Positions 16,742-46,851 of a stretch of DNA of 64,000 nucleotides are shown here, piece by piece; positions within the stretch are counted from its first letter, which is position 1; each line of letters opens with the position of its first letter. A model generated the notes under the pieces. That model saw only the letters and a list, made by a program, of their open reading frames with translations. It made no database searches and had not been told where the DNA came from. The position numbers were made by a program, and so were the translations under genes. Origin of the DNA: Desulfurococcaceae archaeon (GTDB lineage: Archaea; Thermoproteota; Thermoprotei_A; Sulfolobales; Desulfurococcaceae); assembly GCA_038816475.1 (NCBI GenBank), contig JAWBAI010000003.1:32001-96000 (forward strand), in the 5' to 3' direction.

Positions 16742-16745
16742 TCTG

Positions 16746-17108
16746 GTGTTTGATCACATGTTGAGTGGGAATTTCAGCAATGAGGATGTCGAAGAGTACT
16801 ACTTCGACGATTACTACAGGGTCGTTGTAGTTAGAGACGAGCAAGATCACATTGTATCCGTAGATGTTTACAGACCTACGTGGAAATATGACTCTTACGA
16901 GTCCATTTGCGTTGAGAACGTGTGCCTATTAATGAGTGTACTAAGAAATCCGGAGATCTCAGCTATCCACGGAGTTAAGAAAATCATTGTAATAGGAGTC
17001 AAAGTAAACGAAAAAGTGGAAACTGTGAACGTCAAGTGGATAGTTGATCACAAGCCCTCGCGAAGCGAAGTAGAGGCGATGTATAGGGAATCATGGAGAC
17101 TAGTTTAG
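16746..17108 (+). CDS. Hypothetical protein
   Basis: 120-aa ORF directly downstream of the PflX-like gene. Confidence 0.65.
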   Translation: MFDHMLSGNFSNEDVEEYYFDDYYRVVVVRDEQDHIVSVDVYRPTWKYDSYESICVENVCLLMSVLRNPEISAIHGVKKIIVIGVKVNEKVETVNVKWIVDHKPSRSEVEAMYRESWRLV

Positions 17109-17242
17109 CTATAGAGAGAGGCTAGTGGAAAACGACCCAACCTCAATTGACCAACACTTTAGCCTGCACAACTGCTAAAGGCAACATGGAGCATAGACAA
17201 CCTATACATATTAATAATGGAGAATAGCATAAAAGCATAGGA

Positions 17243-31697: not shown

Positions 31698-32804
31698 ATG
31701 AGAGCTATTTACATAGCTCTTAAGAAAGCTATATGGGCATACGCAAGGTTTAGAGAAAAAATTTCTCCAGGCTGGGTACAGAGGAACTCGTCTAAGATTA
31801 AAGAATGGGAGCTTATGGCATATGCTTTTAGCAAGTCAAAGATAGGTGTAGTAGGAGGTATCATTGTCTTTATAAACTTTATGATAGCGCTTGTGGGACC
31901 ATTCGTATCATGGGAACCCTATTGGGAGTATAAGACCGTACATGATCTAAGCTTAATGTATCATCCCCCGTGTATTCCACCATCCTGTAAGGAATACCCC
32001 TTGCTTGGTACTGATGAATGGGGTAGAGATATAATCGCAATGTCGCTTTATGGTTTCAGAATATCCTTTGTTATATCCGTGGTAGTAGTGCTTTTGGGTG
32101 CACCCCTTGGAATATTGCTTGGACTAATTGCAGGTTACAAGGGTGGCATTGTAGATGAGGTTATCATGAGAATAACCGATATATTCCTTGCATTTCCCGG
32201 TTTAGTACTCGCAATAGCATTCGCTTCTATACTACCGCAAAGAATAAGAGGAATGCTAGAAGAAACCCCTCCGCTCAGAGCGTTCTTCTCAGCACTATAT
32301 GGTTTAAGGGAATTAGAGTACGGTCAGCTGGCATCTTTGTTATCTATTTGGTTTGCAATGGTGCTTGTATGGTGGCCTGCGTATGCTAGAATAGTACGTG
32401 GAAATGTTCTATCAGTTAGAGAAATGCCATTCGTGGAAGCGGCAAAGCTATCCGGTCTCTCTACCTGGAGCATACTCTTTAAGCACATACTACCAAACGT
32501 CTTATCACCAGTAATCGTCATGATGACGTTCGACCTTGCTACAGCAACGCTTTTCGCAGCTTCGCTTTCATTTCTGGGACTTGGTCCACAAGATCCTGTA
32601 CCAGAGCTGGGTTTCATGATATCCAAGGCAGGAGCATACTTCCCCGAGAGAAGCTGGCATGTGGTAGTTTACCTAGGAACAATACTACTAATGTTGGCTT
32701 TAGGGTGGAACCTTCTCGGAGATGCTTTAAGAGATATTTTGGATCCAAGAACTAGAAGAGCCATTGAATACAAACTAGAAGAGAAAGAAAAAAGTAGGAG
32801 GTAA
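31698..32804 (+). CDS. dppC: Peptide ABC permease (DppC/OppC family)
   Basis: LGTDEWGRD, FVEAAK, HILPN, LSFLGLG, GDALRD. Confidence 0.9.
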   Translation: MRAIYIALKKAIWAYARFREKISPGWVQRNSSKIKEWELMAYAFSKSKIGVVGGIIVFINFMIALVGPFVSWEPYWEYKTVHDLSLMYHPPCIPPSCKEYPLLGTDEWGRDIIAMSLYGFRISFVISVVVVLLGAPLGILLGLIAGYKGGIVDEVIMRITDIFLAFPGLVLAIAFASILPQRIRGMLEETPPLRAFFSALYGLRELEYGQLASLLSIWFAMVLVWWPAYARIVRGNVLSVREMPFVEAAKLSGLSTWSILFKHILPNVLSPVIVMMTFDLATATLFAASLSFLGLGPQDPVPELGFMISKAGAYFPERSWHVVVYLGTILLMLALGWNLLGDALRDILDPRTRRAIEYKLEEKEKSRR

Positions 32805-32812
32805 CAACACTC

Positions 32813-33826
32813 ATGGAGTTCGAGACCCTGAAAATGCCGGAGGACGAAGTATTAAGAGTTGAAGATCTAGAAGTTAAATTCTACACCTATATGGGAGTCG
32901 TGCACGCCGTATCCAAGGTTTCATTTAATGTTAGAAAAGCTGAAACGATTGCTCTTGTTGGTGAAACAGGTTGTGGTAAAACTGTAACAACAAGAGCCAT
33001 TACAAGACTCATTGAATCACCGGGTAGAATAGAAAATGGAAAGGTTCTCTTTAGACGTAGAGATGGTAGAGTAGTTGATCTGCTAAGAATAGATGACAAG
33101 AAATTACGTGAAATCAGAGGGAACGAGATAGCATATGTGTTTCAAGACCCCACGTCAGCTCTTGACCCGCTCTACACTATTGGATACCATATATATGAAA
33201 CCATTAAAGCACACAAACCAAATGTTACTAAGAAAAGCGCGTTAAAATACGCTATAAACTTACTAAGGCAAGTTTTAATACCAAGTCCCGAGTTGAGAAT
33301 CAAGAACTATCCTCATGAAATGTCCGGTGGTATGAGACAGAGAAGTGTAATAGCTATAAGTTTATCGAACACACCTAAGCTATTAATTGCTGATGAACCA
33401 ACGACAAACCTGGATGTAACACTTCAAGCACAAATACTAAGCTTGCTTAAAAATCTCCAAGAAGAGTACAAGATGAGTTTAATACTGATAACGCACAATC
33501 TCGGGGTAGTAGCAGAGATAGCGGATAGAGCATACGTAATGTACGCAGGTAAAATAGTCGAAGAAGGCCGCGTAGAGCAACTCTTTTACAACCCTCAACA
33601 TCCTTACACAAAATTATTGCTGAGATCTGTTCCTAATCCTTTAAAGAAAATCGAGAAACTGGAGTCTATACCTGGAGTAGTACCTTCGTTGATAAACCCA
33701 CCACCTGGTTGTAGATTTCATCCGCGTTGTCCCTATGCAATGGAGATATGCGGCAAGCGGGAACCACCAATGTTTAACGTAGAAGAGCAACATAGAGCAG
33801 CATGTTGGCTCTTGGATAAAAGGTGA
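32813..33826 (+). CDS. dppD: Peptide ABC ATPase (DppD/OppD)
   Basis: GETGCGKT, MSGGMRQR, IADEPT, HPY, GCRFHPRC. Confidence 0.92.
   Translation: MEFETLKMPEDEVLRVEDLEVKFYTYMGVVHAVSKVSFNVRKAETIALVGETGCGKTVTTRAITRLIESPGRIENGKVLFRRRDGRVVDLLRIDDKKLREIRGNEIAYVFQDPTSALDPLYTIGYHIYETIKAHKPNVTKKSALKYAINLLRQVLIPSPELRIKNYPHEMSGGMRQRSVIAISLSNTPKLLIADEPTTNLDVTLQAQILSLLKNLQEEYKMSLILITHNLGVVAEIADRAYVMYAGKIVEEGRVEQLFYNPQHPYTKLLLRSVPNPLKKIEKLESIPGVVPSLINPPPGCRFHPRCPYAMEICGKREPPMFNVEEQHRAACWLLDKR
33695..33750 (+). repeat. 56-nt direct repeat, copy 1 (in dppD)
   Basis: AACCCACCACCTGGTTGTAGATTTCATCCGCGTTGTCCCTA(T)GCAATGGAGATATG; 55/56 identical to 34670-34725. Confidence 0.9.
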
Positions 33827-33832
33827 AAGGGC

Positions 33833-34807
33833 TTGTCAAAGGAAGTACTACTTGAGGTTATAGACTTAAAGAAGTACTTCAGAGTAAGAGGATCTTTAAC
33901 AAAGAAAGTGAAAGCTGTAGATGGAGTAACGCTTAACATTAAACGTGGAGAAACACTAGGAGTAGTTGGCGAAAGTGGATGTGGGAAAACAACCCTAGGT
34001 AGACTCATCCTTAGACTAATCGATCCAACTTCGGGTAAAATACTATTCGAGGGTAGAGATGTATCAAAGGTTAAAGGTAAAGCTCTAAGGGAGTACTGGA
34101 GGAATGCTCAAATGGTATTCCAAGATCCTCATACAAGCTTGAACCCGAGAATGACGATTGCTAGCATACTTTTAGAGCCTGTTAGATATCATAAGCTAGA
34201 TGTAGGGGATGAGGAAGAGTTTCTCGTTAAACAAATGGAGCTTGTAGGGCTCGGACGAGAACATCTGTATAGGTATCCTCATGAACTATCAGGTGGGCAA
34301 AAGCAACGTGTTGCGATCCTAAGAGCTATAATTACAAGACCTAAATTCATAGTACTCGATGAACCAACATCCTCACTAGATGTATCTGTTCAAGCACAGA
34401 TTCTGGAGTTGTTAAAAGATCTTCAAAAGAAGTTCAACTTAACGTATCTATTCATATCACACGATATTGCAGTGGTGAAGTACATGAGTAATAGAATGGC
34501 TGTAATGTACCTCGGGAAAATAGTCGAGATAGGTCCATCTGACGTGGTTTTCGAAAACCCACATCACCCCTACTCAAAGTTCCTACTTGCAGCAGTACCT
34601 GTACCTGACCCCGAAGTGGCTAGAAGTAAAGAAAGACTGCTTATAAAGGGAGAACCTCCATCACCTGTGAACCCACCACCTGGTTGTAGATTTCATCCGC
34701 GTTGTCCCTACGCAATGGAGATATGTAGTAAGCAGGAACCGCCTGCTATTGAAATTGGTAATAATCACGTTGTTTACTGCTGGCTTTACACTAAAAGAGG
34801 CTCATGA
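33833..34807 (+). CDS. dppF: Peptide ABC ATPase (DppF/OppF)
   Basis: KAVDGV, GESGCGKT, LSGGQKQR, LDEPTS, GCRFHPRC. Confidence 0.92.
   Translation: MSKEVLLEVIDLKKYFRVRGSLTKKVKAVDGVTLNIKRGETLGVVGESGCGKTTLGRLILRLIDPTSGKILFEGRDVSKVKGKALREYWRNAQMVFQDPHTSLNPRMTIASILLEPVRYHKLDVGDEEEFLVKQMELVGLGREHLYRYPHELSGGQKQRVAILRAIITRPKFIVLDEPTSSLDVSVQAQILELLKDLQKKFNLTYLFISHDIAVVKYMSNRMAVMYLGKIVEIGPSDVVFENPHHPYSKFLLAAVPVPDPEVARSKERLLIKGEPPSPVNPPPGCRFHPRCPYAMEICSKQEPPAIEIGNNHVVYCWLYTKRGS
34670..34725 (+). repeat. 56-nt direct repeat, copy 2 (in dppF)
   Basis: Same as 33695-33750 except one synonymous T/C. Confidence 0.9.
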
Positions 34808-35133: not shown

Positions 35134-36393
35134 TCAAGCTTTTAATGCAAGGTATGCCATTACCTTGGCATCGTTAACTAAGTTGTCTATTTTGCAATAC
35201 TCGTTAGGCATGTGTGCTGTTTCATCTATAGTTGACCAAACAGCAGTTGGTATACCGACTCTTCTAAATAAAGCAGCTACAGTACCACCACCAATACCTC
35301 CAATTCGCGGTTCGATACCTCTCAGTACTTTCAAAGCTTCCAATAGAACCTTGACAATAGGCGAATCTGCAGATGTTGGTGGTGCGGCATCCGATCTCTC
35401 TAAGACCTCGTACTCGAGAACAGGGTAAATTCTCTCCTCGAACTTCTTCCTATAAACAATTCGTAGTCCCGCGAACATTCCAAGCATATCTTCTATCAGA
35501 TCATCGACACTATATTCCGGTAGAACACGACAATCTATTACGACTTCGTGCTCGCTCGGGACAATATTCGGAGAACCACTGGAGTTCTTAACCATAGTAG
35601 GTTCGCAGGTCGTTGTCGGTGGATCAAACATTAAGTTTACCTTGCCATACTTTTCTTTTATTAACTTATCCAATAATACTATGTATTCAGCCGCTATTTT
35701 ATGAGCATTAAGGCCCCTGTGTGGTACGCTTGCATGTACCTGTAGTCCTTTAAATTTTAATTTAATCCATAGTATGGATTTTTCAGCTACTTCAATGAAG
35801 TCACCATTACTAGAACCAGCATCGGGTACTAATGCTAGATCTTTTGGGTTAAACAACTCTGAATAGTTTTTAATTAAATACTCAAGACCAAACTTAGAGC
35901 CGGCTTCTTCATCACTTACAAACGCTAAAACAAGTGTTCTTCGAGGTTTTACACCTTCTTCTAAAAGAGCCTTAGCTACGATCAACGATGCTACTAAAGC
36001 TTGCCCATTATCTTCGCTACCTCTACCGTAAACTTTTCCATTAAGAAATACCGGTTCAAATGGCTTAGTGATAGTCCAAGCAGAAACATCTCCAGGTGGT
36101 ACGACATCAAGATGTGTTAGAATCCACAGCTTATCTTCAACTTCACCTTTAATTAAGGCTAATATGTTAGGTCGTACATTACCTTTAGCCCTCGGGTCTG
36201 GCACATTGATTACTTTTACATCCGTAAAGCCCCAGTCTTTTATCTCATCTAAAATGAACGTGGCTTTGTCGTATTCACCGTCACCACCAAATGCAGGATT
36301 AACCCCTTGTCTCTTGATAATCTCCATGAGAAGTTTTACTGCGTAATCTCTCAAAAGGTCTATTCTCTCTAAAACGCGCTTAAGCACAGACAT
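35134..36393 (-). CDS. M20 family metallo-amidohydrolase (ArgE/DapE-like)
   Basis: HLDVVP, GRGSEDNG, SDEEAG, H.PNE. Confidence 0.9.
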   Translation of the reverse strand: MSVLKRVLERIDLLRDYAVKLLMEIIKRQGVNPAFGGDGEYDKATFILDEIKDWGFTDVKVINVPDPRAKGNVRPNILALIKGEVEDKLWILTHLDVVPPGDVSAWTITKPFEPVFLNGKVYGRGSEDNGQALVASLIVAKALLEEGVKPRRTLVLAFVSDEEAGSKFGLEYLIKNYSELFNPKDLALVPDAGSSNGDFIEVAEKSILWIKLKFKGLQVHASVPHRGLNAHKIAAEYIVLLDKLIKEKYGKVNLMFDPPTTTCEPTMVKNSSGSPNIVPSEHEVVIDCRVLPEYSVDDLIEDMLGMFAGLRIVYRKKFEERIYPVLEYEVLERSDAAPPTSADSPIVKVLLEALKVLRGIEPRIGGIGGGTVAALFRRVGIPTAVWSTIDETAHMPNEYCKIDNLVNDAKVMAYLALKA

Positions 36394-36439
36394 TCTAAAC
36401 GCCTAGGAATAATCTATGAGTCAGTCATGTATATATCTT

Positions 36440-37162
36440 CTAGATCATGTTAAGATTTTGCAGTCGAGGTGATTTTATTTTACGATGTTTTAAGCTTAGT
36501 TTTAAAAGAGATTCTGCAACTTTCAATGTTACAAGTGTAGGGTCTATTACTGGAATACCTACAACTTTACTTATAGTGTTCGCCAACCCTATAAATCCAC
36601 TACACCCCAGTACAACAACATCTACCTCATGTTCCTTTACGGCTTTTTCAATTTCTTTAGTAAGTAAGCTTGTAATTCTTTCAATGTTTTTTCTTATCTC
36701 CAATATAGGTATTTCTATTCCTGATATGTAAACTACGCGTTTCTCGATACCTAGCTGAGCAACTCTGCGCTTATACAATGTAGACCACTCTCTCCCGGCC
36801 GAAATTATGCCAATTTTATAACCCAAGAGTAACGCTATTGCTAGCGACGTTTCGCCAATACCAAAAACCGGTATGTCTGATACTTCTCGCGAACCCTCTA
36901 ACCCAGGGTCGTCAAAACAGTTTATGATAACGCCATGGAACCCTTCTTTGTCAGCCTTCACCACTTCTTTAATAACCAGTGGCGCAACCAGCTCTTTTTC
37001 ATATTCGGTCTCTATATAAGGTGGTGCTCCAGGTATGTTCCTTACCACAACCTCTACGTCAAATGAGAGAACTTGTTTAGCGTAACTTAGAGTAAGCTCA
37101 TTCCATATATCCACACCTACTGGGTTTATAATAAGCAACTTCACCTTCAAGCTCATAACCAT
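36440..37162 (-). CDS. Asp/Glu/hydantoin racemase family protein (copy 1)
   Basis: INP, INCFDDPG, LGCSG (two catalytic Cys), PVIDP. Confidence 0.9.
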   Translation of the reverse strand: MVMSLKVKLLIINPVGVDIWNELTLSYAKQVLSFDVEVVVRNIPGAPPYIETEYEKELVAPLVIKEVVKADKEGFHGVIINCFDDPGLEGSREVSDIPVFGIGETSLAIALLLGYKIGIISAGREWSTLYKRRVAQLGIEKRVVYISGIEIPILEIRKNIERITSLLTKEIEKAVKEHEVDVVVLGCSGFIGLANTISKVVGIPVIDPTLVTLKVAESLLKLSLKHRKIKSPRLQNLNMI

Positions 37163-37200
37163 GCGATTTGATAAACTTTCCTAACCTACATAACTCTAAA

Positions 37201-38160
37201 TTAGATGTAGAGCCAGCATGCTACAAGCCTATTTTTCACATTAACTAATAAAGGCTTTTTTTCATAGCAGATCTTAGTAGCATAGCGACATCTATGAGCT
37301 AGTTTACAACCGAGCGCTTCCGCATAAGCTTTATCCTCTTTTAACAATGAGTAATTGGTATGATAAGTTAAACCCTTGATAGGATCAGGGAACGACGCCA
37401 TTAGTGCTTGTGTATACGGATGAAGTGGTTCTTGAAAAACGGTGTCTACACTACCAACTTCCATAACGTTGCCGCGATACAATACTAGTATATTTTTAAC
37501 TATGTAGCGTACAATTGATAAATCGTGTGTTACTAGAAGATATGTCATGTTAAATTTCTCACGTAACTCCTGCAGAAGATTAATTATTTGCGCCTGTATG
37601 GATACGTCTAAAGCTGATGTTGGTTCATCAAGAAGAATGAGCTCGGGGTTTACAGCTAGAGCTCGAGCTAATGCAACACGTTGAGCCTGTCCTCCACTTA
37701 GGTTTGAAGGATACTGGTTCATGGTAGATAAAGGTAATCCTACTAATTCTAATAATTCACTTACTTTTTTCCTGATATCTTTTTCTTCGAGTTTTTGATG
37801 TTTTCTTATAGGTTCAGCCACGATGTCGAATACCTTCATCCGAGGATTAAGTGATTGGAATGGGTTCTGAAAAACAGCCTGAACACTCCTACGGTACCAG
37901 CTCTCTTCTTTTTTAGTCAACAAGAAAATATCCTTATTCTTAAAGAAAATTCTGCCCCGTGTGGGTTTTTCCAACTTAAGTATAGTCCTTAATATTGTTG
38001 TTTTACCCGAGCCTGTTTCGCCGACTAAGGCAAGACCATCATAACTATTTACCGCAAATGACACCCCATTCACGGCTTTTACGTATCCAATAACACGTCC
38101 GAAGAGACCTTTTTTAATAGGAAAATACACATGAAGGTCTTCAACTCTTAAGATCTCCAT
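37201..38160 (-). CDS. Dpp/Opp-family ABC ATPase (F-type)
   Basis: KAVNGVS, GETGSGKT, LSGGQAQR, LDEPTS; ATG 38160 overlaps the upstream TAA. Confidence 0.9.
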   Translation of the reverse strand: MEILRVEDLHVYFPIKKGLFGRVIGYVKAVNGVSFAVNSYDGLALVGETGSGKTTILRTILKLEKPTRGRIFFKNKDIFLLTKKEESWYRRSVQAVFQNPFQSLNPRMKVFDIVAEPIRKHQKLEEKDIRKKVSELLELVGLPLSTMNQYPSNLSGGQAQRVALARALAVNPELILLDEPTSALDVSIQAQIINLLQELREKFNMTYLLVTHDLSIVRYIVKNILVLYRGNVMEVGSVDTVFQEPLHPYTQALMASFPDPIKGLTYHTNYSLLKEDKAYAEALGCKLAHRCRYATKICYEKKPLLVNVKNRLVACWLYI

Positions 38161-39131
38161 TATGACCCCTGATACAAATGACATAGAACCATTCTTTTGT
38201 TGAAAGCTACACGTGGAGGTTTTTGTATTGCGCACACAGGTTTGTTACTATCGCATCTACTATGAAATGGACAGCCCTCGAAGTCTTTTCTAAGATCTGG
38301 AGGAGATCCTTGTATAGGTATTAGTGAACCATCAGTTGCACATAGCTTTGGCATAGCTCTTAGCAGTCCCTTTGTGTATGGATGTAATGGACTTTTTAAG
38401 ACTTCTTCGATGAAGCCTTCCTCTACAATCGTTCCAGCGTACATTACTGCAACTTTATCACACATATGCGCTGCAATACCAAAATTATGTGTTATCATTA
38501 TTAGGGTTAAATCATATTCTTTTTTAAGCGCTTTGATTAGGTTTAGTATCTCAGCTTGAGTAATTACATCTAGATTCGTCGTCGGCTCATCTGCTATAAG
38601 AACTTTAGGTTTCTTAGCTAATGCTAATGCTATTGAAGCTCTCTGTAACATTCCACCTGATAGTTCGTGTGGGTACGAATTTAAAACACGGTCTATTTCG
38701 ATAAGTCTAGCACTTTTAAGAGCTTCCTTAGATATTTCAATCGCTTCCTTTGGGGTTACTTTCAACACATCAATTAGCACGTCTATGAACTGCTGTTTTA
38801 TAGTGAAAAGTGGATTGAAAGCGGTGGCCGGATCTTGAAATACTACTCCAATTTCTCTTCTTATCTTAGATAATATGCTCGGATTATTATTTCGTAGTAC
38901 GTCAATGCCTTCGTATATTACAGAACCCCGCTCTACCACGGCATTTTTAGGTAAAATTAAAGCTAGTGCTTGTACTAGTGTTGATTTACCTGATCCAGAC
39001 TCGCCTACAATGCAAATAGCCTCACCACGCTCAATACGTAGATTCACACCTCTGAGAGCCTTGATCACCGCTCCAAAGGTGTAGTAATTAATTACGAGAT
39101 CTTGTATTGCTATGAAGGCATTATTCGCCAT
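38160..39131 (-). CDS. Dpp/Opp-family ABC ATPase (D-type)
   Basis: GESGSGKS, LSGGMLQR, IADEPT, GCPFHSRC. Confidence 0.9.
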   Translation of the reverse strand: MANNAFIAIQDLVINYYTFGAVIKALRGVNLRIERGEAICIVGESGSGKSTLVQALALILPKNAVVERGSVIYEGIDVLRNNNPSILSKIRREIGVVFQDPATAFNPLFTIKQQFIDVLIDVLKVTPKEAIEISKEALKSARLIEIDRVLNSYPHELSGGMLQRASIALALAKKPKVLIADEPTTNLDVITQAEILNLIKALKKEYDLTLIMITHNFGIAAHMCDKVAVMYAGTIVEEGFIEEVLKSPLHPYTKGLLRAMPKLCATDGSLIPIQGSPPDLRKDFEGCPFHSRCDSNKPVCAIQKPPRVAFNKRMVLCHLYQGS

Positions 39132-40009
39132 GAACGTCGCCTCTTTATGATCATGAGATTTCTAACTCTCGGATCCATGTATTCTTTTAGCGCATCACCA
39201 AGCAAGTTAAAGCCAAGCACGACTGTTAGTATAGCTAAACCGGGGAACAACGAAATCCACCATGCTATATTTATATACTGCCATCCTTCACTAACAAGTA
39301 AACCCCATTCGGGGATTGGTGGAGGAACACCTACACCTAGAAAGCTCAGAGCCGACGCTTCTAGTATAGCTGACCCTATATCCAATGTCGCCTGAGTAAC
39401 CACGGGGGTAATCACATTCGGAAAAATATGCTTGAACATTATGACTACAGGACTCACACCTATTATTTTAGCTGAGTCTACGTATGCAAGAGATTTTACC
39501 GATGTTGTTTGAATGTAAACTAACCTAGTATACCACGGCCACCAGGATAGTGCTAATGCAATAATCGTGTTTAAAACGCCTCTTCCAAGTATAGATGCAA
39601 ACGCTATTGCTAGAAGCAAGGGTGGAAAAGCTAAGAACATGTCTGCAATTCTCATTACTACGGTACCGACTTTGCCACCGAAGTAGCCTGCTACAAGACC
39701 TGTTGGTACACCTATTAGTAGTGCAATTACAACTACAGATACACCGATCACCAAGGAAAACCTAGTACCTAAAATTACTCGGTTAAGCAGATCTCTGCCT
39801 AGAGCGTCTGTTCCTAGAGGGTGCTCTAGCGAAGGAGGATTAAACTTTTTTTCCGGGTGGTAAGCTATCCCCCATGCATCTTCGGGCTTCGTTACAATAT
39901 AGGGAGCTAAAACTCCTACTATGATAAAGATAGCAACTATACTAAAACCCACTAAATAAATCCTTCTCAGTAGAATAAACCTTAAGAAATCCTTGAACCA
40001 CGCGTTCAT
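39110..40009 (-). CDS. Dpp/Opp-family ABC permease (C-type)
   Basis: HPLGTDALGRD, HIFPN, LSFLGVG, PEWG, GDALK. Confidence 0.9.
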   Translation of the reverse strand: MNAWFKDFLRFILLRRIYLVGFSIVAIFIIVGVLAPYIVTKPEDAWGIAYHPEKKFNPPSLEHPLGTDALGRDLLNRVILGTRFSLVIGVSVVVIALLIGVPTGLVAGYFGGKVGTVVMRIADMFLAFPPLLLAIAFASILGRGVLNTIIALALSWWPWYTRLVYIQTTSVKSLAYVDSAKIIGVSPVVIMFKHIFPNVITPVVTQATLDIGSAILEASALSFLGVGVPPPIPEWGLLVSEGWQYINIAWWISLFPGLAILTVVLGFNLLGDALKEYMDPRVRNLMIIKRRRSWRIMPS

Positions 40010-41028
40010 AGTTTCACTCTAGGATCTATCCAGGCATGAACAATGTCTACAACGAGGTTTATCGCGGAATAAAACAAAGCTACAAATACTATCGAACCAA
40101 GCACAGCCGGGTAATCATGGCTTAAAAGAGACATACCTGCGTAATAACCTACACCGGGCCACACGAACACGAGTTCGACCATGAAGGCACCTATAATGGT
40201 GTAACCAAAACTCAAACCTAGTGAAGCTATTACTGGTGAAATAACGTTCTTTAAAACGTATTTGTAAATGAGTTTACTTCTACTTATTCCGTTAGCTTCT
40301 AAAAATCTTACGAAGTTTTCATTTAAAACTTCAATTGCAATGGATCTAACCATTCTAATCGTGAGACTTAACGGATAAAGAGATACTGTGATTGCGGGTA
40401 AAGCTATTCTTCTAAGCACATCAACGAACACTATCATATTGCCTTGCAATAGCGAATCTAACAGGTAGAAACCTGTTATTGGTCTAAAACCTGTCGCTAG
40501 TACTAAAACAGTATCTATACGCTTACCGGCTGGCAGTATTTTTAGCCATATTCCAAAAACTAACTGTAAAATTAATGCGGTCCAAAAAACAGGCATGGAA
40601 GCTCCTACTATAGCAATGGTTCGGATTATGTCATCCTTTATGCTTCCAATTCTTAAAGCCGAGTAAAAGCCTAAGGGAATGCCTAAAACCATTGCTATAG
40701 TAAACCCTACTACGACCAATTCTAGAGTTGCAGGTAAAGCCGATAGTATGTCCTGAAGAACTTGTTGTCGCGTTCTCCAGGATACACCCCAGTTACCTTT
40801 AAAAAAGTTTTCTAAATAGTAAATTAGCTGAATATGTATTGGTTCATCTAAATGGAGCTCTCGTCTAGCTCTCTCGATAGCTTCTAGGGGGGCATGAGGT
40901 CCTGCCCATAAAATCTCTGGTCGTGCAGGTATGACACGAGTTAGAATAAACGTGATAATGAGGACTCCAAATACAACGAGTATAAGTGAAAAAAGTCTTT
41001 TCGTAATATATGAATATGTAACCGGCAT
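40006..41028 (-). CDS. Dpp/Opp-family ABC permease (B-type)
   Basis: GNWGVS, PATLEL, VELVFVWPGVG, DYP, DPRV. Confidence 0.9.
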   Translation of the reverse strand: MPVTYSYITKRLFSLILVVFGVLIITFILTRVIPARPEILWAGPHAPLEAIERARRELHLDEPIHIQLIYYLENFFKGNWGVSWRTRQQVLQDILSALPATLELVVVGFTIAMVLGIPLGFYSALRIGSIKDDIIRTIAIVGASMPVFWTALILQLVFGIWLKILPAGKRIDTVLVLATGFRPITGFYLLDSLLQGNMIVFVDVLRRIALPAITVSLYPLSLTIRMVRSIAIEVLNENFVRFLEANGISRSKLIYKYVLKNVISPVIASLGLSFGYTIIGAFMVELVFVWPGVGYYAGMSLLSHDYPAVLGSIVFVALFYSAINLVVDIVHAWIDPRVKL

Positions 41029-41043
41029 ACCTTAGTCAGCCAT

Positions 41044-42684
41044 TTACTCCACGACAAGTTTTTGAGCAAATATAACGGTTGGATAGCAAGGATTAATAGC
41101 TTCATCAAGATTCTTAATACGAGTAGTAGCTACTCTAATATCGATCATATCCCATAGAGGTATGGCGGGAACATCCATGTAAAGTATATACTGTGCCTTG
41201 TAGTATAGCTCAAGAGCTTTCGCGGGATTCAAGCCTTCGAGTCTATAAGCATCGATTATTATTGCATCAAAGGTCTGGTTTTCGTAGTAGCATAAATTAA
41301 AAGCCTTACTTTCACTATGAAACATGTTGTATAGGTATGTTATCGGTGAAAGAACATCGGGCCACCAGTAGAATATGAACAAGTCTTGTACTTCCTCAGG
41401 CGTTTCCCATCCCTTTTGAGCTAAAGCCCACTGTTCTTCCCAGGACATAGGCTTTATTTCGACATTTATACCAATCTTAGCAAGCGATGCCTTTATTATC
41501 TCAGCTGTTCGAGCTTCATAGATGTCACCAGCCGTATACACTAAGGTTAGTGTTCTTGGAATGCCATCCGGATATCCCGCTTCAGCTAGTAACCTCTTGG
41601 CAAGATCTAAATCGTAGGTATACGTTAAATTATCGAAGTGACCCCATAAACCGTATGGTATGGGACCACTAGCTACCCTAGCTAGACCCCCACGTGCTAA
41701 TTTAACTATGTCTTCATATGGTATGGCATGCGCGATTGCTCTTCTCACGCGAGTGTCATTTAGCGGTGGCTTCCTGGTGTTTATCAACATTATCAAGTTC
41801 TGAAAGCTGGGTTTACGAACAACAACAAAATTCGGATCTCTTTCGAACAACTCAAGATCCTCGATTGGAACGTACTGCGCAATATGTATCTCTCCGGCTC
41901 TCAGCATTCTACTCTGAGTTGCAGCATCTTTGATAACTTTAATAATGAATACGTCGGGTGCTTTATCAATAGAGGATCTCCATGGGTAATCAGGCTCTCT
42001 CCAACCCCACCACTCTTCCCATTTTTCAAGCACGACTTCAAATTCAGGGTCCCATTTAATTAGCTTATATGGTCCGCTGCCACACGCATTACCTCTATTA
42101 AACCACTCTGCAACTTTAGGATCAACAGAGTCGGTCGCATTGGCGTATTTTACCACGTTGGGGCAGAAGATGTATGCAGAATAAGGAGATGCGGCAATTT
42201 TTAGTAATGGTGCGGGGTATTTGAGATAGAATCTAATAGTGTATTCGTCTATAACCTCAATTCTCTCCACAGGGTCCCATATATATGCTGCACCACCACC
42301 AAGTAATATTGTTCTGTTGATACTAAAAGCTACAGCTTCAGCATTAACAGGGGATCCATCGTGAAACTTGGCACCCTTCCTGATATAGAAAGTCCAAACG
42401 GTACCCTCAGGATCGCTCTCCCACCTCTCAGCTAATCCTGGTATGAACTGATCTTTGAACGGATCATACCATACTAATGTTTCATATACTAGCGGTAGCC
42501 ACATTACTGAATTAGAGAACTCTGTACTGGGATCAGCTGTTGTCATTTCAGATAGAGAAGCGTAGATAACAGCTTTCTTTGGTAATGGTGAAGGCGCTCG
42601 AAGCCATATCATAAAGCCAGCTACTATACTAATTATCACAACTACTGCAATAACAGCTAGTAACAAACGCTTAAGTACGGTCAA
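41044..42684 (-). CDS. Family-5 ABC substrate-binding protein (canonical domain order)
   Basis: TM anchor, TADP, YETLV, PGLAERW, KFHDG, GSGPY, VRRAIAHA, WWPD. Confidence 0.92.
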   Translation of the reverse strand: MTVLKRLLLAVIAVVVIISIVAGFMIWLRAPSPLPKKAVIYASLSEMTTADPSTEFSNSVMWLPLVYETLVWYDPFKDQFIPGLAERWESDPEGTVWTFYIRKGAKFHDGSPVNAEAVAFSINRTILLGGGAAYIWDPVERIEVIDEYTIRFYLKYPAPLLKIAASPYSAYIFCPNVVKYANATDSVDPKVAEWFNRGNACGSGPYKLIKWDPEFEVVLEKWEEWWGWREPDYPWRSSIDKAPDVFIIKVIKDAATQSRMLRAGEIHIAQYVPIEDLELFERDPNFVVVRKPSFQNLIMLINTRKPPLNDTRVRRAIAHAIPYEDIVKLARGGLARVASGPIPYGLWGHFDNLTYTYDLDLAKRLLAEAGYPDGIPRTLTLVYTAGDIYEARTAEIIKASLAKIGINVEIKPMSWEEQWALAQKGWETPEEVQDLFIFYWWPDVLSPITYLYNMFHSESKAFNLCYYENQTFDAIIIDAYRLEGLNPAKALELYYKAQYILYMDVPAIPLWDMIDIRVATTRIKNLDEAINPCYPTVIFAQKLVVE

Positions 42685-42844
42685 CGTGTGCCCTAAGTAT
42701 GAGACTCTACTAAGGGTATTTAAATGTCATAAGAAAAGCATTAATAAAAGCATCAATAATGGAAGTTTCGAAAACGATTAACAATGTAAAATCAAGCACC
42801 TCATTCACCAGATTAGTGCTATCATACGGTTTCATAACAATGTT

Positions 42845-43891
42845 TCATCTCATGCCTGTTCTTAAGAGCATGGCTAATTCCATGAGGTCTCCATGCACGT
42901 ACTCGCCGTTTTCTATTATTAATTCACCATCGCATTCTACTGTTGGATTTAAGCAAACACCATCAGTATGAGAAGATGCAGGTCCTAGCTTTCCCCTAAA
43001 TGTTGGAGACTGCGATCCAATACCCCATTCAACAACACCCCACACTCTTTCATCCTCCAGTATGTTACCAGAGAGCTTTGCTCCCGGGTTACAGCCATAG
43101 GATAAGTGAGCTATGTTTAGCATTTTCTCATCATTAAGCGACTTGATCCACTTTTCAAAGAGTCTTGCTTCATAACCGCCTTCGATTTTTTTAATTTTAC
43201 CTTCAATTACATGTAGCTTTATAGGAGTTTTTAAGATTCCAAGCTCTTCAGGAGGCCACACAGAACCATCAAACACTATTACCCCATTTATACTATCTTC
43301 TACGGGCGCCCAATCCACCTGACCGAACAACATGTATTCACCAGGTCCATCTACTTCACCTTCCACGAGAACAGGTCGAGCTGGATCATTTTCGAATTCC
43401 ACGTTCATACCAGCTGGACTTGTTATTCGCATTTTCTTGCATTTTTTTGTTATGCTTGATAACTTTCTCTGAAAGATGTACATGGCGTCCAAGTTCACTC
43501 TACCAATTGTTCTAACCATCATGTCACTGTACATACCCACAAGACACATATACTTTACCTTACCTGTTTCAACAGCTTTCCAGTAGGGTGTTGAGTAGAG
43601 TAGCCAATTTCTGTTGTATTCTATCCAGACATCAGCTTCTCTTAGTATAGCTGTGAGCGTTTTTACTGGTAGATACTTATCAGCAGCTATACCAACACCT
43701 ATAGGTGTTTGGTGGAGCACTATAACTGGCTTAGCACCAACTATTGCTGTTGCTTCTGCCGTTGCTACAGCTACATTCCAATCACCAGCTGTATCTATCG
43801 TTATTACAACTTCGTCTCCAGCAGACACTTTAAGTACGTCCTTCACTAATTTGTACGCAGCAGATAAAAGTTCGTAGTCTAGATACCTCAT
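42845..43891 (-). CDS. Peptidase M29/aminopeptidase T-fold metalloprotein with atypical ligands
   Basis: ITSPAG, GQVDWAP, GVIVFDGS, AHLSYGCNP, LEDERVWG, SHTDG. Confidence 0.78.
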   Translation of the reverse strand: MRYLDYELLSAAYKLVKDVLKVSAGDEVVITIDTAGDWNVAVATAEATAIVGAKPVIVLHQTPIGVGIAADKYLPVKTLTAILREADVWIEYNRNWLLYSTPYWKAVETGKVKYMCLVGMYSDMMVRTIGRVNLDAMYIFQRKLSSITKKCKKMRITSPAGMNVEFENDPARPVLVEGEVDGPGEYMLFGQVDWAPVEDSINGVIVFDGSVWPPEELGILKTPIKLHVIEGKIKKIEGGYEARLFEKWIKSLNDEKMLNIAHLSYGCNPGAKLSGNILEDERVWGVVEWGIGSQSPTFRGKLGPASSHTDGVCLNPTVECDGELIIENGEYVHGDLMELAMLLRTGMR

Positions 43892-43930
43892 AGGATCGCC
43901 CCTATTTAATTAACGCGTTCTCCTTCTTTT

Positions 43931-44599
43931 CTAAGTATAGTGTTTTACGAGTTTTAATAAACTTACTATTAAAAGCGCACTTGCCTTAACCGGGTCTATT
44001 ACTGGAACCTTAATTTCGTCCTCTAACTCTTCAGCCATACCACCAAAACCTGTACATCCAAGTACAAAAATAGCTCTACTTTCTTTAGAGAGAATGATCT
44101 TCATGGTATTTAGCAATAGCTCAGCTACTCTGTTTCTATCCTTATCAATATCTGTAACGCTAATAGGAATACTAACTATGTCGACTAAGTATTCTCTCAA
44201 ATTGAGTCTATAAATTTTGTTCCACATCAGATCAAGGGCCTCTTTCATTAAGCTTACAGTTAAGACATATATTGGGCGTCCATATAATTTAGCTAATGTT
44301 AAAGAGGATTCACCAGCACCTAGCACTATACCTTTAGTTTCACGTCTTAACTCCTCTACCCCCGGATCTAGGAAGCAGTTAATGATTACACCATCATACT
44401 TGCTAACTACGGTTCTACCGACTTCTACAACTATGCGAGAAGCTTCTAGAAAAGCTTCGACTGTTTCAACAGCTGAAGGCCCTCTAGGGAGAGATATGAC
44501 ATCCACTTCCATGTATGAAGGTAAAAATCTCTTGTATAATGCTTTATCGGCTTCGTTCCACATGGAGTGCCCTACAGGGTTTATAACAAGTATTCTCAT
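43931..44599 (-). CDS. Asp/Glu/hydantoin racemase family protein (copy 2)
   Basis: INPVG, INCFLDPG, LGCTG, PVIDP. Confidence 0.9.
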   Translation of the reverse strand: MRILVINPVGHSMWNEADKALYKRFLPSYMEVDVISLPRGPSAVETVEAFLEASRIVVEVGRTVVSKYDGVIINCFLDPGVEELRRETKGIVLGAGESSLTLAKLYGRPIYVLTVSLMKEALDLMWNKIYRLNLREYLVDIVSIPISVTDIDKDRNRVAELLLNTMKIILSKESRAIFVLGCTGFGGMAEELEDEIKVPVIDPVKASALLIVSLLKLVKHYT

Positions 44600-45708
44600 T
44601 ACGAAGGAACACCGAGTTCTTTCACTAGTTCTTCAACAGGTACATAGTCGTAATCAAACCCAAAACGCCTTGGTCCAAATAATTCAAGACCACGCGGAGT
44701 TCTCCAAACACTATGCGCTTTTGCCGCTATTCCATTAACAATCATACCTTCCTTGAGATCCGCGTTTGTTATGGGTGTGCCGTCGTCTGTTACTAGTATG
44801 AACAGATCTGGCGGCATTACGAGCGGTTTATCATCAAGCCATACCATGATATGTTCATTCATGATCCAGCTTCTAAGAACTCTATCTCTGTACACATTAA
44901 TACCTCTTATAACAGCCTCGCCTTTTAAGAAACCCGCTTCATCACGCCATTTATAGCTTTCAACAATACCTTTAAATACAACCCAGCCTTCAAGTACTCT
45001 AGCAATTGTAGCTACAGGGTCACGTTTCCTAGCTCTAGCTCTTAACACCTTTGATCCGAGTCTAAAACACTTTGAGAGCGTAGCACTAATAACTGCCTTC
45101 TTAGCTTCCGTTTTCTTCATTGGTGTATCAACTACTGCTACGTATCTACCACTAAGTACTGAAAGATACCTGACTATTGCCTCATAATCATCTATATCAG
45201 CATATTCCTTTACTAAGACTACATTGCCCGTTTCTGAGACTATTACTGAAGGATACATTGGAATCCCAAATATGTGAACAGTACATTGATGCAACTCTGG
45301 AGCAGCTCTGCCAAGAAGATCTCCATCTACTGCTGGTATTCCTAGTTTAGCTGCAATGCTTAAAGCTACAGGGGTGTTAGCACCTCCAAGCTCGCTAGCT
45401 ACAACTCCTGCTACTTTTACACCTAACTCTTTCTCCATAACTTCAAATGCTCTATTGATAGCGTTGGGTACCTTAATACTTTTCTTAGGCTTTAAACCCG
45501 GTGCTATTGATCCCACGTAGTATGGAACAACAATTACTCCATCATCTGGTAGCTCATCAAGGCTAACAATATTGATTACTTTGCCCTCTTCTAAAACACT
45601 CTTAAGTAGCAAGAGACCTTCTTTAGGATCACCTCCACCACCAGTGCCAAGGATTGTTGCTCCTAGAACAAGCTTCTCGGCATCATCAATACTGGTTATG
45701 GACCACAA
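44599..45708 (-). CDS. DUF917 family protein (thiohydantoin desulfurase/desulfhydrase family)
   Basis: GATILGTGGGG, ELGGAN, VDGDLLGRAAPE, NE, PDL, FGP. Confidence 0.88.
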   Translation of the reverse strand: MWSITSIDDAEKLVLGATILGTGGGGDPKEGLLLLKSVLEEGKVINIVSLDELPDDGVIVVPYYVGSIAPGLKPKKSIKVPNAINRAFEVMEKELGVKVAGVVASELGGANTPVALSIAAKLGIPAVDGDLLGRAAPELHQCTVHIFGIPMYPSVIVSETGNVVLVKEYADIDDYEAIVRYLSVLSGRYVAVVDTPMKKTEAKKAVISATLSKCFRLGSKVLRARARKRDPVATIARVLEGWVVFKGIVESYKWRDEAGFLKGEAVIRGINVYRDRVLRSWIMNEHIMVWLDDKPLVMPPDLFILVTDDGTPITNADLKEGMIVNGIAAKAHSVWRTPRGLELFGPRRFGFDYDYVPVEELVKELGVPS

Positions 45709-46348
45709 AATTCACACCCATGTAAGAGTGGTTCAAGGTCTTTAAAATTTTGTAGAGGTGTACTTATTGAATTTACCATCACGTTAAACCATGCTAGGAA
45801 GGTAAAGGACTTAAGCGTACGCTAATGCTGATGTTCTGATGTGTTTACATCATGGAGATTTCTGAGAGCCGGTATTTAACTGTTATCAACTTTCGCAGGG
45901 ATCATACGAGATCTCAGCAAAGTTCCTAGAACACTAGCACGACTAGCACGGCAAAGAAGAATATACAATATCAAGGTCGGCTTCGGCATTTACGATTGTA
46001 ACGTACTTAGGATAATGGCTATTAGCTATGTTCAATAAGTCCTCGTATCTTGTCTCGCTCGTTCTTAGTCAGAACAACCCCTGGGCAAACACTACTGTTT
46101 TTCTCGAAGTTTTCATCATGAACTCCAAGGCAACCTACACATAGTTTTGAATACCGAAAACCCTAAGCTCAAGGAGAAACCGGAGATAGATGCTGGGGGA
46201 TCAAAGCAAGACTACGAAGTCGTCATCACTCTACATGAATCACTATCAAGGCTGAACTTCTAACTGGGAGAGATACGAAGACTCATAGTTTTTGATGATT
46301 GATTTTTAATATTTAGAGGACTCTAATATTTGAAGAAAAGGATAAGTC

Positions 46349-46743
46349 ATGCGGTTTAAACTATCATCTTACTTGTTCGTTGCCAGTGTTCTCACCCCCT
46401 TGCTGATGGTCACGTTTATCGGTGTTCTAGCTACTCGACCAGATCTACTACAAGAACTATCGCGGCTGGACGTTGTTGTGCTTGAACTCACGCTACCCTC
46501 TGATCTGAGGGAAAAGCTTACATCTACGTCTCGCCGATGTACCCTGAGGGTCTTAGGCAGGTGAGCAGAACGGTTGTAGACCCGGAGAACATGCCCGTGG
46601 AGAGGGCGATCCTCAGCCTCAGGGACCTCAGGGAAGCCTGGAGGAGGGAGTGGAAGAGAAGGGGGACATTCGCCGAGCCCCTTATTGTAATAACAGGGGT
46701 TCACGAGATCCAGCAAGGTTTTTGCACAGAGGGTCGAGTCTAG
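46349..46743 (+). pseudogene. Fragmentary remnant of a secreted/membrane protein gene
   Basis: Signal-peptide-like ORF 46349-46564 overlapped by a second-frame ORF 46537-46743; GC-richer tail. Confidence 0.35.
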
Positions 46744-46776
46744 TGGGTCAAGGGCAATTAGGTGAGTGAAGAATTG

Positions 46777-46851
46777 CGGGCCCGCCGGGATTTGAACCCG
46801 GGTCCTCCGGCTCCGAAGGCCGGCGCCCTTTCCAGGCTAGGCGACGGGCCC
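46777..46851 (-). tRNA. tRNA-Arg(UCG), intronless, CCA not encoded
   Basis: GGGCCCG acceptor stem, anticodon arm CCGGC-CTTCGGA-GCCGG, T arm CCGGG-TTCAAAT-CCCGG, discriminator G. Confidence 0.97.

Follow-up and report, generated by a model that had tools for sequence, protein, structure and literature searches.

The stretch of DNA analysed here, referred to below as the window, is 64,000 nt long and comes from a heat-loving Desulfurococcaceae archaeon (assembly GCA_038816475.1, contig JAWBAI010000003.1, positions 32,001 to 96,000 of the forward strand). Between positions 35134 and 45708 it carries ten co-oriented open reading frames (ORFs) on the minus strand, which encode a DUF917 protein, two racemases, a NicX-like protein with an M29 fold, an ATP-binding cassette (ABC) importer with its substrate-binding protein (SBP), and an M20 metallohydrolase, and which would together form an operon for the uptake and breakdown of a cyclic amide (Table 1). 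The list of genes, their order and their shared orientation had been set out in an original prediction made from the sequence alone, and every one of these items is confirmed by the ORF list and by Pfam and NCBIfam scans. The prediction had further noted that no hydantoinase, oxoprolinase, ergothionase or urocanase lies among the ten cluster genes, which is indeed the case; nicotinate-pathway genes are likewise lacking among the ten.

Table 1. Genes of the cluster in order of transcription, and the putative promoter elements that precede two of them (positions are those of the window).
Feature	Position	Strand	Properties
Gene 1: DUF917 two-domain protein	44599-45708	-	369 aa, TTG start; PF06032 161 bits, PF20906 183 bits
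Gene 2: racA, Asp/Glu/hydantoin racemase family	43931-44599	-	222 aa; PF01177 97.9 bits
Gene 3: NicX-like protein, M29 fold	42845-43891	-	348 aa; no local Pfam match; structure model
Gene 4: SBP_bac_5, family-5 Dpp/Opp-type SBP	41044-42684	-	546 aa, N-terminal hydrophobic anchor; PF00496 314 bits
Gene 5: ABC permease, DppB/NikB-like	40006-41028	-	PF00528 (BPD_transp_1) and PF19300; NCBIfam scores below equivalog cut-offs
Gene 6: ABC permease, DppC/NikC-like	39110-40009	-	PF00528 (BPD_transp_1); NCBIfam scores below cut-offs
Gene 7: ABC ATPase, DppD/OppD-like	38160-39131	-	PF00005 and PF08352 (oligo_HPY)
Gene 8: ABC ATPase, DppF/OppF-like	37201-38235	-	PF00005 and PF08352 (oligo_HPY)
Gene 9: racB, second racemase/epimerase	36440-37162	-	240 aa; PF01177 138.9 bits
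Gene 10: M20 metallohydrolase, DapE/ArgE type	35134-36393	-	419 aa; NF010589 520 bits (cut-off 333); PF01546 and PF07687
Putative TATA-like element 5' of gene 1	45740-45750	-	A/T-rich 11-mer, centre ~37 nt before TTG start
Putative TATA-like element 5' of SBP gene	42715-42726	-	A/T-rich 12-mer, centre ~36 nt before TTG start, within 160-nt gap

Adjacent genes of the cluster overlap or are separated by gaps of 15-46 nt, the sole exception being the 160 nt before the SBP gene. Because of this longer gap, and of the TATA-like elements found before gene 1 and before the SBP gene, the cluster probably has two transcription units, one of genes 1-3 and one of genes 4-10, and the element at 42715-42726 is a probable candidate for the internal promoter. 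The enzyme and transporter blocks are divergently transcribed in many related loci. The ORF called for gene 8 opens 76 nt within gene 7, with an N-terminal extension of 25 residues that overlaps the latter, and the true start is probably the internal Met26 at ~38160.

That the same gene set recurs in many archaea argues for a real nutrient-breakdown pathway. The related loci compared are those of gene-3 homologues, the best 80 out of 162 that were confirmed, and presence was scored by tblastn of the ten window proteins within 10 kb of the gene-3 homologue. In these 80 loci, which surround the closest relatives of gene 3 and belong to related genomes that are not independent of one another, DUF917 was found in 60, an ABC component in 53, a racemase in 46, two racemases in 34 and M20 in 19. 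Most of the 20 loci without DUF917 end early on one side. In the well-flanked subset (30 of the 80 loci, with at least 6 kb on either side of the gene-3 homologue), the respective counts are 28, 28, 18, 15 and 8. The original prediction had proposed looking for co-occurrence elsewhere, and the high counts for DUF917 and the ABC components in well-flanked loci, together with the class sample described below, bear it out.

When the 1049 ORFs of 90 aa or more in the 80 loci were all clustered without bias, the same families came out on top: NicX-like proteins in 78 loci, DUF917 in 59, the ATPases in 54, the two permeases in 50 and 49, the SBP in 49, racemases in 46 and M20 in 19. Every family from outside the window's set occurs in at most 6 of the 80 loci, the minor families including HyuA-like proteins (6), DUF1028 (6) and AroM (4). 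In a sample of the host's class, the gene-3 family is present in 8 of 61 genomes and DUF917 in 8 of these 8, while DUF917 occurs in 6 of the 53 genomes lacking the gene-3 family. In one genome (G004), the DUF917 and NicX-like genes lie on separate contigs. Within the host's own family, the module is confined to the host's genus, occurring in 1 of 10 other genomes, and the closest public relatives of gene 3, at 92% identity, are from Desulfurococcus and Desulfurococcaceae metagenome-assembled genomes (MAGs). This is a real, self-contained and patchily distributed accessory module, whose core comprises DUF917, the NicX-like protein and a Dpp-type importer; racemases are usual members, and M20 an occasional one.

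Lineage labels of the loci include Desulfurococcales, Ignisphaera, Pyrodictiaceae, Acidilobaceae, Sulfolobales and Caldarchaeales/Aigarchaeota, as well as Methanodesulfokora, Thermococcus, Thermoplasmata, Bathyarchaeia and Nitrososphaerales, and the order of the module's genes varies among them. Since the module also occurs in Nitrososphaerales and Bathyarchaeia MAGs labelled as coming from soil and peat, the originally proposed origin of the substrate, through the action of heat or sulfide on amino-acid derivatives, is weakened.

Several individual loci depart from the common arrangement. In the closest relative (L002), whose gene 3 shares 92% identity, the racB region is 58% identical and holds no intact ORF of at least 90 aa (16672-17631), and the match to M20 is limited to residues 1-61, a 61-residue remnant; the 3' end of the operon appears to have decayed or been replaced there. 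In some Desulfurococcales (L024, L025, L028, L029 and L072), a distant DUF917 protein of 32-33% identity lies beside a HyuA-like protein composed of Hydant_A_N and Hydantoinase_A domains, and DUF1028 and an NMT1-type binding protein are also found there. Two or three NicX-like paralogues occur in close proximity in L051 and in L076-L080; one of these loci, L080, labelled as a Thermotogae bacterium, has three such paralogues and no DUF917 within reach.

Gene 3 has no local Pfam match even at E 10, and its relatives, 1785 in number at E <=0.001, carry the database tag PF26233 and bear source names that vary between aminopeptidase and 2,5-dihydroxypyridine dioxygenase. Its structure model (pLDDT 82, pTM 0.82) was matched by Foldseek to the NicX structures 7CN3 and 7CUP with TM 0.73-0.75 and E 3e-26 at ~19-20% identity, and to the M29 aminopeptidases PepS, AmpS and AmpT with TM 0.55-0.65 and E 3e-14 to 2e-12. 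A profile of 18 members was also aligned by hhalign with 14 archaeal M29 proteins at 97.5% probability (E 8.9e-12, 318 columns), and the M29-fold call of the original prediction was, in this respect, correct. A scan of the genome with the M29 model, PF02073, left gene 3 undetected and found a single gene, a classical M29 aminopeptidase gene at C16:4921-5637 that is interrupted by the contig end; with that gene, the genome has both a classical M29 enzyme and the NicX-like relative.

The two families differ at what we take to be the metal ligands of M29, the five invariant positions Glu-Glu-His-His-Asp. The M29 residues E228, E294, H321, H340 and D342 correspond to Q191, H262, E288, H308 and D310 of gene 3, so that two of the five ligand positions are kept (H308 and D310) and three are changed (Glu to Q191, Glu to H262 and His to E288). 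H262 in turn corresponds to NicX His265 in a profile match of E 4.3e-16 whose alignment ends at residue 281, and spacing and the M29 alignment suggest that H308 and D310 correspond to NicX His318 and Asp320; His265, His318 and Asp320 are presumably the iron triad of NicX. Within the gene-3 family, H262, H308 and D310 are conserved, as are acidic residues. Gene 3 shares its fold with NicX and with the M29 aminopeptidases (AmpS, PepS, AmpT), aligns with NicX at His265 and has the profile homology and the His-x-Asp pair in common with M29, but it differs from them in its low identity to NicX, in its altered M29 ligands, in going undetected by PF02073 and in having a host in which no terminal oxidase was found. 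It is homologous to M29, outside the membership of that family, and closest to NicX.

Neither COX1 nor cytochrome bd oxidase was found in the 92%-complete host genome, which is consistent with an anaerobic host, and many host lineages of the module are strict anaerobes. Since no terminal oxidase was found in the host, the reaction of gene 3 is expected to be independent of O2 and probably hydrolytic, and the protein is probably a mononuclear metallohydrolase. A dioxygenase reaction of the NicX type was also considered and, in view of the same missing oxidases, is rated unlikely.

The DUF917 protein is a distant relative, not an orthologue, of the two desulfurase equivalogs for thiohydantoin and S-methyl-thiohydantoin, NF058529 and NF058532. 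Judging by its sequence, it is homologous to them over nearly its full length (residues 7-331 and 7-325); it scores 75.2 bits with one model, which has a cut-off of 450, and 68.8 bits with the other, which has a cut-off of 440. Characterised DUF917 desulfurases belong to bacterial ergothioneine catabolism. When the DUF917 model (pLDDT 93.3) was searched with VIA-align and Foldseek, the sole convincing structural relative was the uncharacterised protein 2O3I (Z 37.2), the next match (Z 5.4) being confined to the C-terminal beta-barrel; no match to a hydantoinase fold was obtained in these searches, which is no proof that the folds differ. The invariant residues are E106, N111, D128, D130, R134, E138, E176, R180, N284, E285, D301, W335, R336, Y355 and E359, and include neither Cys nor His. 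The protein is a putative hydrolase that is metal-independent or has a carboxylate site.

Both racemases score above the PF01177 cut-off of 31 bits. Their relatives in the PDB are, for racA, the hydantoin racemase 2EQ5, the allantoin/hydantoin racemase 3QVJ and the epimerase OpaE, and, for racB, 3QVJ and the allantoin racemase 5LFD; E values against hydantoin/allantoin racemases range from 1e-22 to 1e-13, while those against Asp/Glu racemases are 1e-5 or weaker. The two-Cys assignment made originally holds for both proteins, which keep the pair of catalytic Cys across their orthologues. In racA, C75 is present in 33 of 33 sequences and C182 at a frequency of 0.97 of the 33, and in racB both C82 and C187 are present in 48 of 48; in either protein the Cys residues align with the Cys-containing motifs of 3QVJ. 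RacB is 35% identical to racA. In a tree of 81 racemases, a single clade with support of 1.0 takes in every one of the 28 genes positioned between DUF917 and the NicX-like gene; it also includes 10 genes scored as "other", several of them on end-clipped loci, and the racB types fall outside it. By this phylogeny, racA and racB are two old, separately conserved paralogues, and two separately conserved epimerases would fit a substrate with two stereocentres. The M20 gene at the end of the cluster is intact, and its product is closest to models of the DapE/ArgE type; no carbamoylase model is found among the best 25 of its 53 NCBIfam matches. M20 is an accessory member of the module.

The importer consists of an SBP_bac_5 protein, two permeases and two oligo_HPY ATPases, and has a Dpp-type architecture. 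It shares this five-component layout, including the SBP_bac_5 and oligo_HPY families, with the Dpp importer of Escherichia coli, but all its components score below the equivalog cut-offs, and in its SBP family the Arg355-type residue of DppA is missing and the Asp408-type residue is often missing as well. The closest named solved relatives of the SBP are HbpA, the GsiB homologue YliB and DppA, which bind glutathione or dipeptides. The window protein was aligned with E. coli DppA together with 39 of 41 complete orthologues, two of less than 40% identity having been dropped. In the column of DppA Arg355, the 40 members have Thr 34 times, Asn 3 times, Met twice and Leu once, and Arg or Lys in none, the window protein having Thr; in the column of Asp408, 16 have Asp and 24 have Thr. 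Arg355 and Asp408, the identities of which were checked on the E. coli sequence, are presumably the residues that bind the peptide termini, at the carboxylate and amino ends, respectively. The substitutions are moderate evidence for a ligand that would lack at least a normal free C-terminus.

A further pointer to the substrate comes from genes that occasionally accompany the module. In two Thermococcus loci (L043 and L049), the same nine-gene module has ahead of it two overlapping genes, of the nitroreductase family and of DUF6092/PF19585, and then the gene of an AsnC-type regulator. These two Pfam families correspond to the subunits of cyclodipeptide oxidases (CDOs), CDOA being PF00881 and CDOB PF19585, and CDOs are present in Thermococcus (PMC11055893). 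By tblastn, a CDOA/CDOB pair lies beside the module in 6 of the 80 loci (L026, L035, L043, L049, L069 and L078), and a CDOA gene that is clipped by the locus end lies beside it in two more (L032 and L039). A minor family of 176 aa, found in 5 of the 80 loci, has a representative at the CDOA position in L035. No nitroreductase gene lies in or beside the cluster of the window; the one in the genome is 34% identical and on another contig, and tblastn with the Thermococcus CDOB gave no match in the host genome.

Such company has been noticed before, and the original description of the system as undescribed holds in part. Andreas and Giessen (2024, Nat Commun, PMC11055893) list non-CDPS CDO clusters that are enriched in PF01177, DUF917, AroM, peptide ABC transporters and peptidases, and their paper has it that every characterised CDO acts on cyclic dipeptides; in this sense the module is partly catalogued. 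The NicX-like family goes unmentioned in the main text of that paper, where "M29" and "aminopeptidase" have no occurrences, and the text covers no functional tests of the clusters. What the non-CDPS CDO clusters of that text share with the present loci is the grouping of hydantoin-racemase-family genes, DUF917, peptide ABC transporters and peptidases, including in Thermococcus, whereas the present module has its core in DUF917, the NicX-like protein and the importer, the CDO being an add-on. New here are the self-contained nature of the module, the core pair of NicX-like protein and DUF917, and the loss of three M29 ligands in the former, together with the ancient racemase paralogues, an SBP family without the Arg clamp of DppA and the status of the CDO pair as an optional add-on.

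The rest of the host genome (1.15 Mb, 18 contigs, 92% complete) was searched for enzymes that could complete a known route. It has one DUF917 gene, two PF01177 genes, both of them within the cluster, and seven Amidohydro_1 genes. Two of the last, at C5:79712-81040 and C7:66035-67387, resemble dihydroorotase (DHOase), allantoinase and dihydropyrimidinase. They reach 262.8 and 288.7 bits, respectively, against a hydantoinase cut-off of 393.25, also miss the allantoinase cut-offs, and score 209-279 bits against the ErtD models, which have cut-offs of 600-650. The search for a hydantoinase elsewhere in the genome, proposed by the original prediction, thus gives two candidate cyclic amidases, which are unlinked to the cluster and fall below the cut-offs. 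The genome yielded no Hydantoinase_A or Hydantoinase_B (HyuA/HyuB), no DUF1177 or AroM, and no Urocanase (PF01175); Lyase_aromatic (PF00221) was found neither there nor in three genus mates. Around the first candidate, on contig C5 at ~70371-81040 (L082, L084, L085 and L087), four amidohydrolase-superfamily genes lie close together, namely an adenine deaminase (above cut-off), an SsnA-like gene, a 5'-deoxyadenosine-deaminase-like gene and the DHOase/allantoinase-like gene, and this group may be a purine or heterocycle catabolic cluster.

Classical hyu operons encode a permease, a hydantoin racemase, a hydantoinase and a carbamoylase, and by analogy the cluster can be read as a hyu-like catabolic operon for a cyclic amide that is built from non-canonical enzymes and was partly catalogued in 2024. 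The parallel lies in the succession of import, racemisation at an acidic C-alpha and two hydrolytic steps, in the two-Cys racemase and in the terminal M20-type hydrolase. The differences are that the cluster has no hydantoinase of the dihydropyrimidinase or HyuA/HyuB type, that its transporter is a Dpp-type ABC importer in place of an NCS1 permease, that it has two racemase paralogues and that DUF917 and the NicX-like protein occupy the place of the known hydrolases.

The reading that we favour, though at no better than even odds, is that a dipeptide-sized cyclic amide is taken up, epimerised and then hydrolysed in two steps. In such a pathway, the Dpp-type importer would take up a dipeptide-sized, amino-acid-derived amide without normal free peptide termini, most likely a cyclic dipeptide (2,5-diketopiperazine) and, as second choice, a 5-substituted hydantoin. 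RacA and racB would then interconvert stereoisomers at acidic C-alpha centres and thereby make D-containing forms usable, while DUF917 and the NicX-like metalloenzyme would open the ring and cleave the linear product; either of the two could be the one that opens the ring. In the host, M20 would add or back up a final amide cleavage, giving free amino acids for fermentation. What the analysis shows is the gene content, how the module is conserved, the folds and the conserved residues of catalytic type; which class of substrate is used, in what order the steps occur and which core enzyme opens the ring are what we infer here. The general idea of the original prediction, that a cyclised amino-acid derivative is imported and then broken down, is still the best class of explanation, and its interpretation as a whole is partly supported.

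For the substrate itself, a diketopiperazine is a tentative first choice over a 5-substituted hydantoin, because two separately conserved epimerases fit two stereocentres, because the importer is of the dipeptide type without a carboxylate clamp, because ring opening and then dipeptide cleavage would account for the two universal hydrolases and because the recurrent add-on CDO pairs have characterised members that act on cyclic dipeptides. It is equally tentative to suggest that DUF917 and the NicX-like protein would constitute the first gene-defined system for opening and splitting diketopiperazine rings without ATP or O2, and that their partners would be a Dpp-type SBP adapted to uncharged cyclic dipeptides and two epimerases, each dedicated to one of the stereocentres of a cyclic dipeptide.

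A number of observations weigh against a cyclic dipeptide. Every argument about the substrate is indirect. The closest solved relatives of the racemases act on hydantoins or allantoin and not on diketopiperazines, and the sole named DUF917 subfamilies act on (thio)hydantoins. Two racemases are present in only 15 of the 30 well-flanked loci, and in 12 of the 30 no racemase is shown. The SBP of the window retains the Asp equivalent to Asp408, and its alignment near Arg355 is one of low identity. The CDO pair is missing from 74 of the 80 loci and from the host genome, and for non-CDPS CDO clusters hydantoin- or allantoin-like substrates are suggested in the text of PMC11055893. With the genome only 92% complete, all genome-wide absences are provisional. 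As for expression, RNA library X1 provides short contigs, 93-97% identical, that cover parts of genes 10, 5, 4, 3, 2 and 1, but these give zero depth over 36012-39647 and are possibly DNA carry-over from a related strain; such related-strain contigs are weak evidence that the module's genes are expressed. Raw metatranscriptome reads from libraries X2, X3 and X4 included 0, 0 and 1 matching reads, respectively, and are no test of expression.

Of the other readings, non-canonical use of (oxo)hydantoins deserves the most weight, even though we consider it unlikely. Here, 5-substituted hydantoins or N-carbamoyl amino acids would be imported and racemised, DUF917 would open the ring, and the NicX-like protein and/or M20 would remove the carbamoyl group. 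The solved racemase homologues and the hydantoin-type rings handled by the named DUF917 subfamilies would both suit this reading, as would the M20 gene that ends the operon, since M20 enzymes include L-N-carbamoylases; a two-step hydrolysis would occupy the two universal hydrolases, and, with no canonical hydantoinase in the cluster and no HyuA/HyuB found in the genome, the role stands vacant. A hydantoin has a single stereocentre, however, whereas the module has two separately conserved racemase clades, and the importer is Dpp-type, while NCS1-type permeases are the ones known for hydantoins. The M20 protein is nearest to DapE/ArgE models, with no carbamoylase among the best 25 of 53 matches, and M20 occurs in just 8 of the 30 well-flanked loci. 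The DUF917 model, moreover, matched no known hydantoinase fold, though this is not proof. Salvage of atypical linear peptides is a shade less probable again. It would have di- or tripeptides with D-residues, isoaspartyl or gamma-glutamyl bonds imported, the racemases epimerising residues or freed D-Asp and D-Glu, and the NicX-like protein, DUF917 and M20 acting as specialised peptidases. The Dpp-type importer, with SBP relatives that bind glutathione or dipeptides, would accommodate this, and so would the Asp408-type residue kept in the window's SBP, the homology of gene 3 to M29 aminopeptidases, the DapE or dipeptidase type of the M20 protein and the inclusion of Asp and Glu racemases in PF01177. 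Yet Arg or Lys is absent from all 40 sequences at the carboxylate-binding column, with Asp in 16 of 40 at the amino-binding column; gene 3 keeps just two of the five M29 ligands, escapes the M29 model and coexists with a true M29 gene elsewhere in the genome; the racemases are nearer to hydantoin/allantoin than to Asp/Glu enzymes; and the CDO pairs adjacent to the module point to ring-shaped substrates.

The route of the original prediction, in which imported 2-thiohydantoins or S-alkyl-thiohydantoins are desulfurated by DUF917, racemised, opened perhaps by the M29-fold protein and finally turned into an amino acid by M20, now seems improbable. Near-full-length homology of DUF917 to both desulfurase models, the shared two-domain DUF917 architecture and the presence of racemases and M20 in the cluster speak for it. 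The sulfur-specific step is nevertheless not supported: the scores of DUF917 amount to about one-sixth of the equivalog cut-offs and it has no conserved Cys. Three hydrolytic steps, and thus three hydrolases, would be needed where two are near-universal in the module, the third, M20, being found in 8 of 30 well-flanked loci and decayed in the closest relative. No paper was found on a natural pool of free thiohydantoins, the searches having been aimed at the desulfurase. Compared with the bacterial ergothioneine pathway, the module also has archaeal, anaerobic hosts and entirely other gene partners, and the genome yielded no ergothionase-type aromatic lyase (nor did three genus mates), no urocanase-type hydratase and no ErtD equivalog, its two ErtD-like cyclic amidases scoring far under the cut-offs. 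Ergothioneine itself was rejected as the substrate, urocanase and the aromatic lyase not having been found in the 92%-complete genome. It is scarcely credible, lastly, that there is no single pathway and that an ordinary peptide importer lies by chance beside unrelated enzyme genes. A second Opp/Dpp-type operon is directly adjacent, so such transporters are common here, and in G004 the DUF917 and NicX-like genes are on different contigs; but recurrent linkage across many lineages in varied orders, the tight spacing and overlaps of the genes and the co-occurrence in 8 of 8 genomes largely refute a chance arrangement. An uptake and breakdown pathway for a cyclic amide, with a diketopiperazine as the tentative substrate, is the reading that we retain.

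In the surroundings of the cluster, the second Opp/Dpp-type ABC transporter, at 31698-34807 on the plus strand, comprises an OppC_N permease and two oligo_HPY ATPases, and converges tail-to-tail on the cluster. On the other side, ~1.07 kb (45709-46776) without a convincing ORF separate gene 1 from a tRNA gene (46777-46851, minus strand). Within this region, a 115-aa ORF at 46369-46716 has no Pfam match, the region has no Rfam match at gathering score, and contigs of library X1 have no depth over the upstream gap at 45708-46515. It may represent a decayed gene or a promoter or integration region. The G+C content of the cluster is 0.39-0.41, against values that are mostly 0.41-0.45; such slightly reduced G+C values, and the adjacent tRNA gene, would be in keeping with an acquired island.

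The NicX-like family, and DUF917 where it occurs apart from ergothioneine catabolism, are two widespread protein families, and solving the module would assign functions to both. A solved module would also explain the peptide-transporter-linked clusters around cyclodipeptide oxidases, and it may supply pairs of racemases and hydrolases for making enantiopure amino acids or dipeptides. Because the module is small and self-contained and its proteins are thermostable, it is suited to reconstitution in vitro. In the account of Perzborn et al. (2013; PMC3852281), the peptidases tried left cyclic dipeptides uncleaved, and the degradation of cyclic dipeptides is described as little known; our literature search for the gene of a diketopiperazine hydrolase found no paper naming one. 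If the diketopiperazine reading is true, anaerobic peptide-fermenting archaea would, by means of this module, reach a pool of cyclised peptides that is closed to ordinary peptidases.

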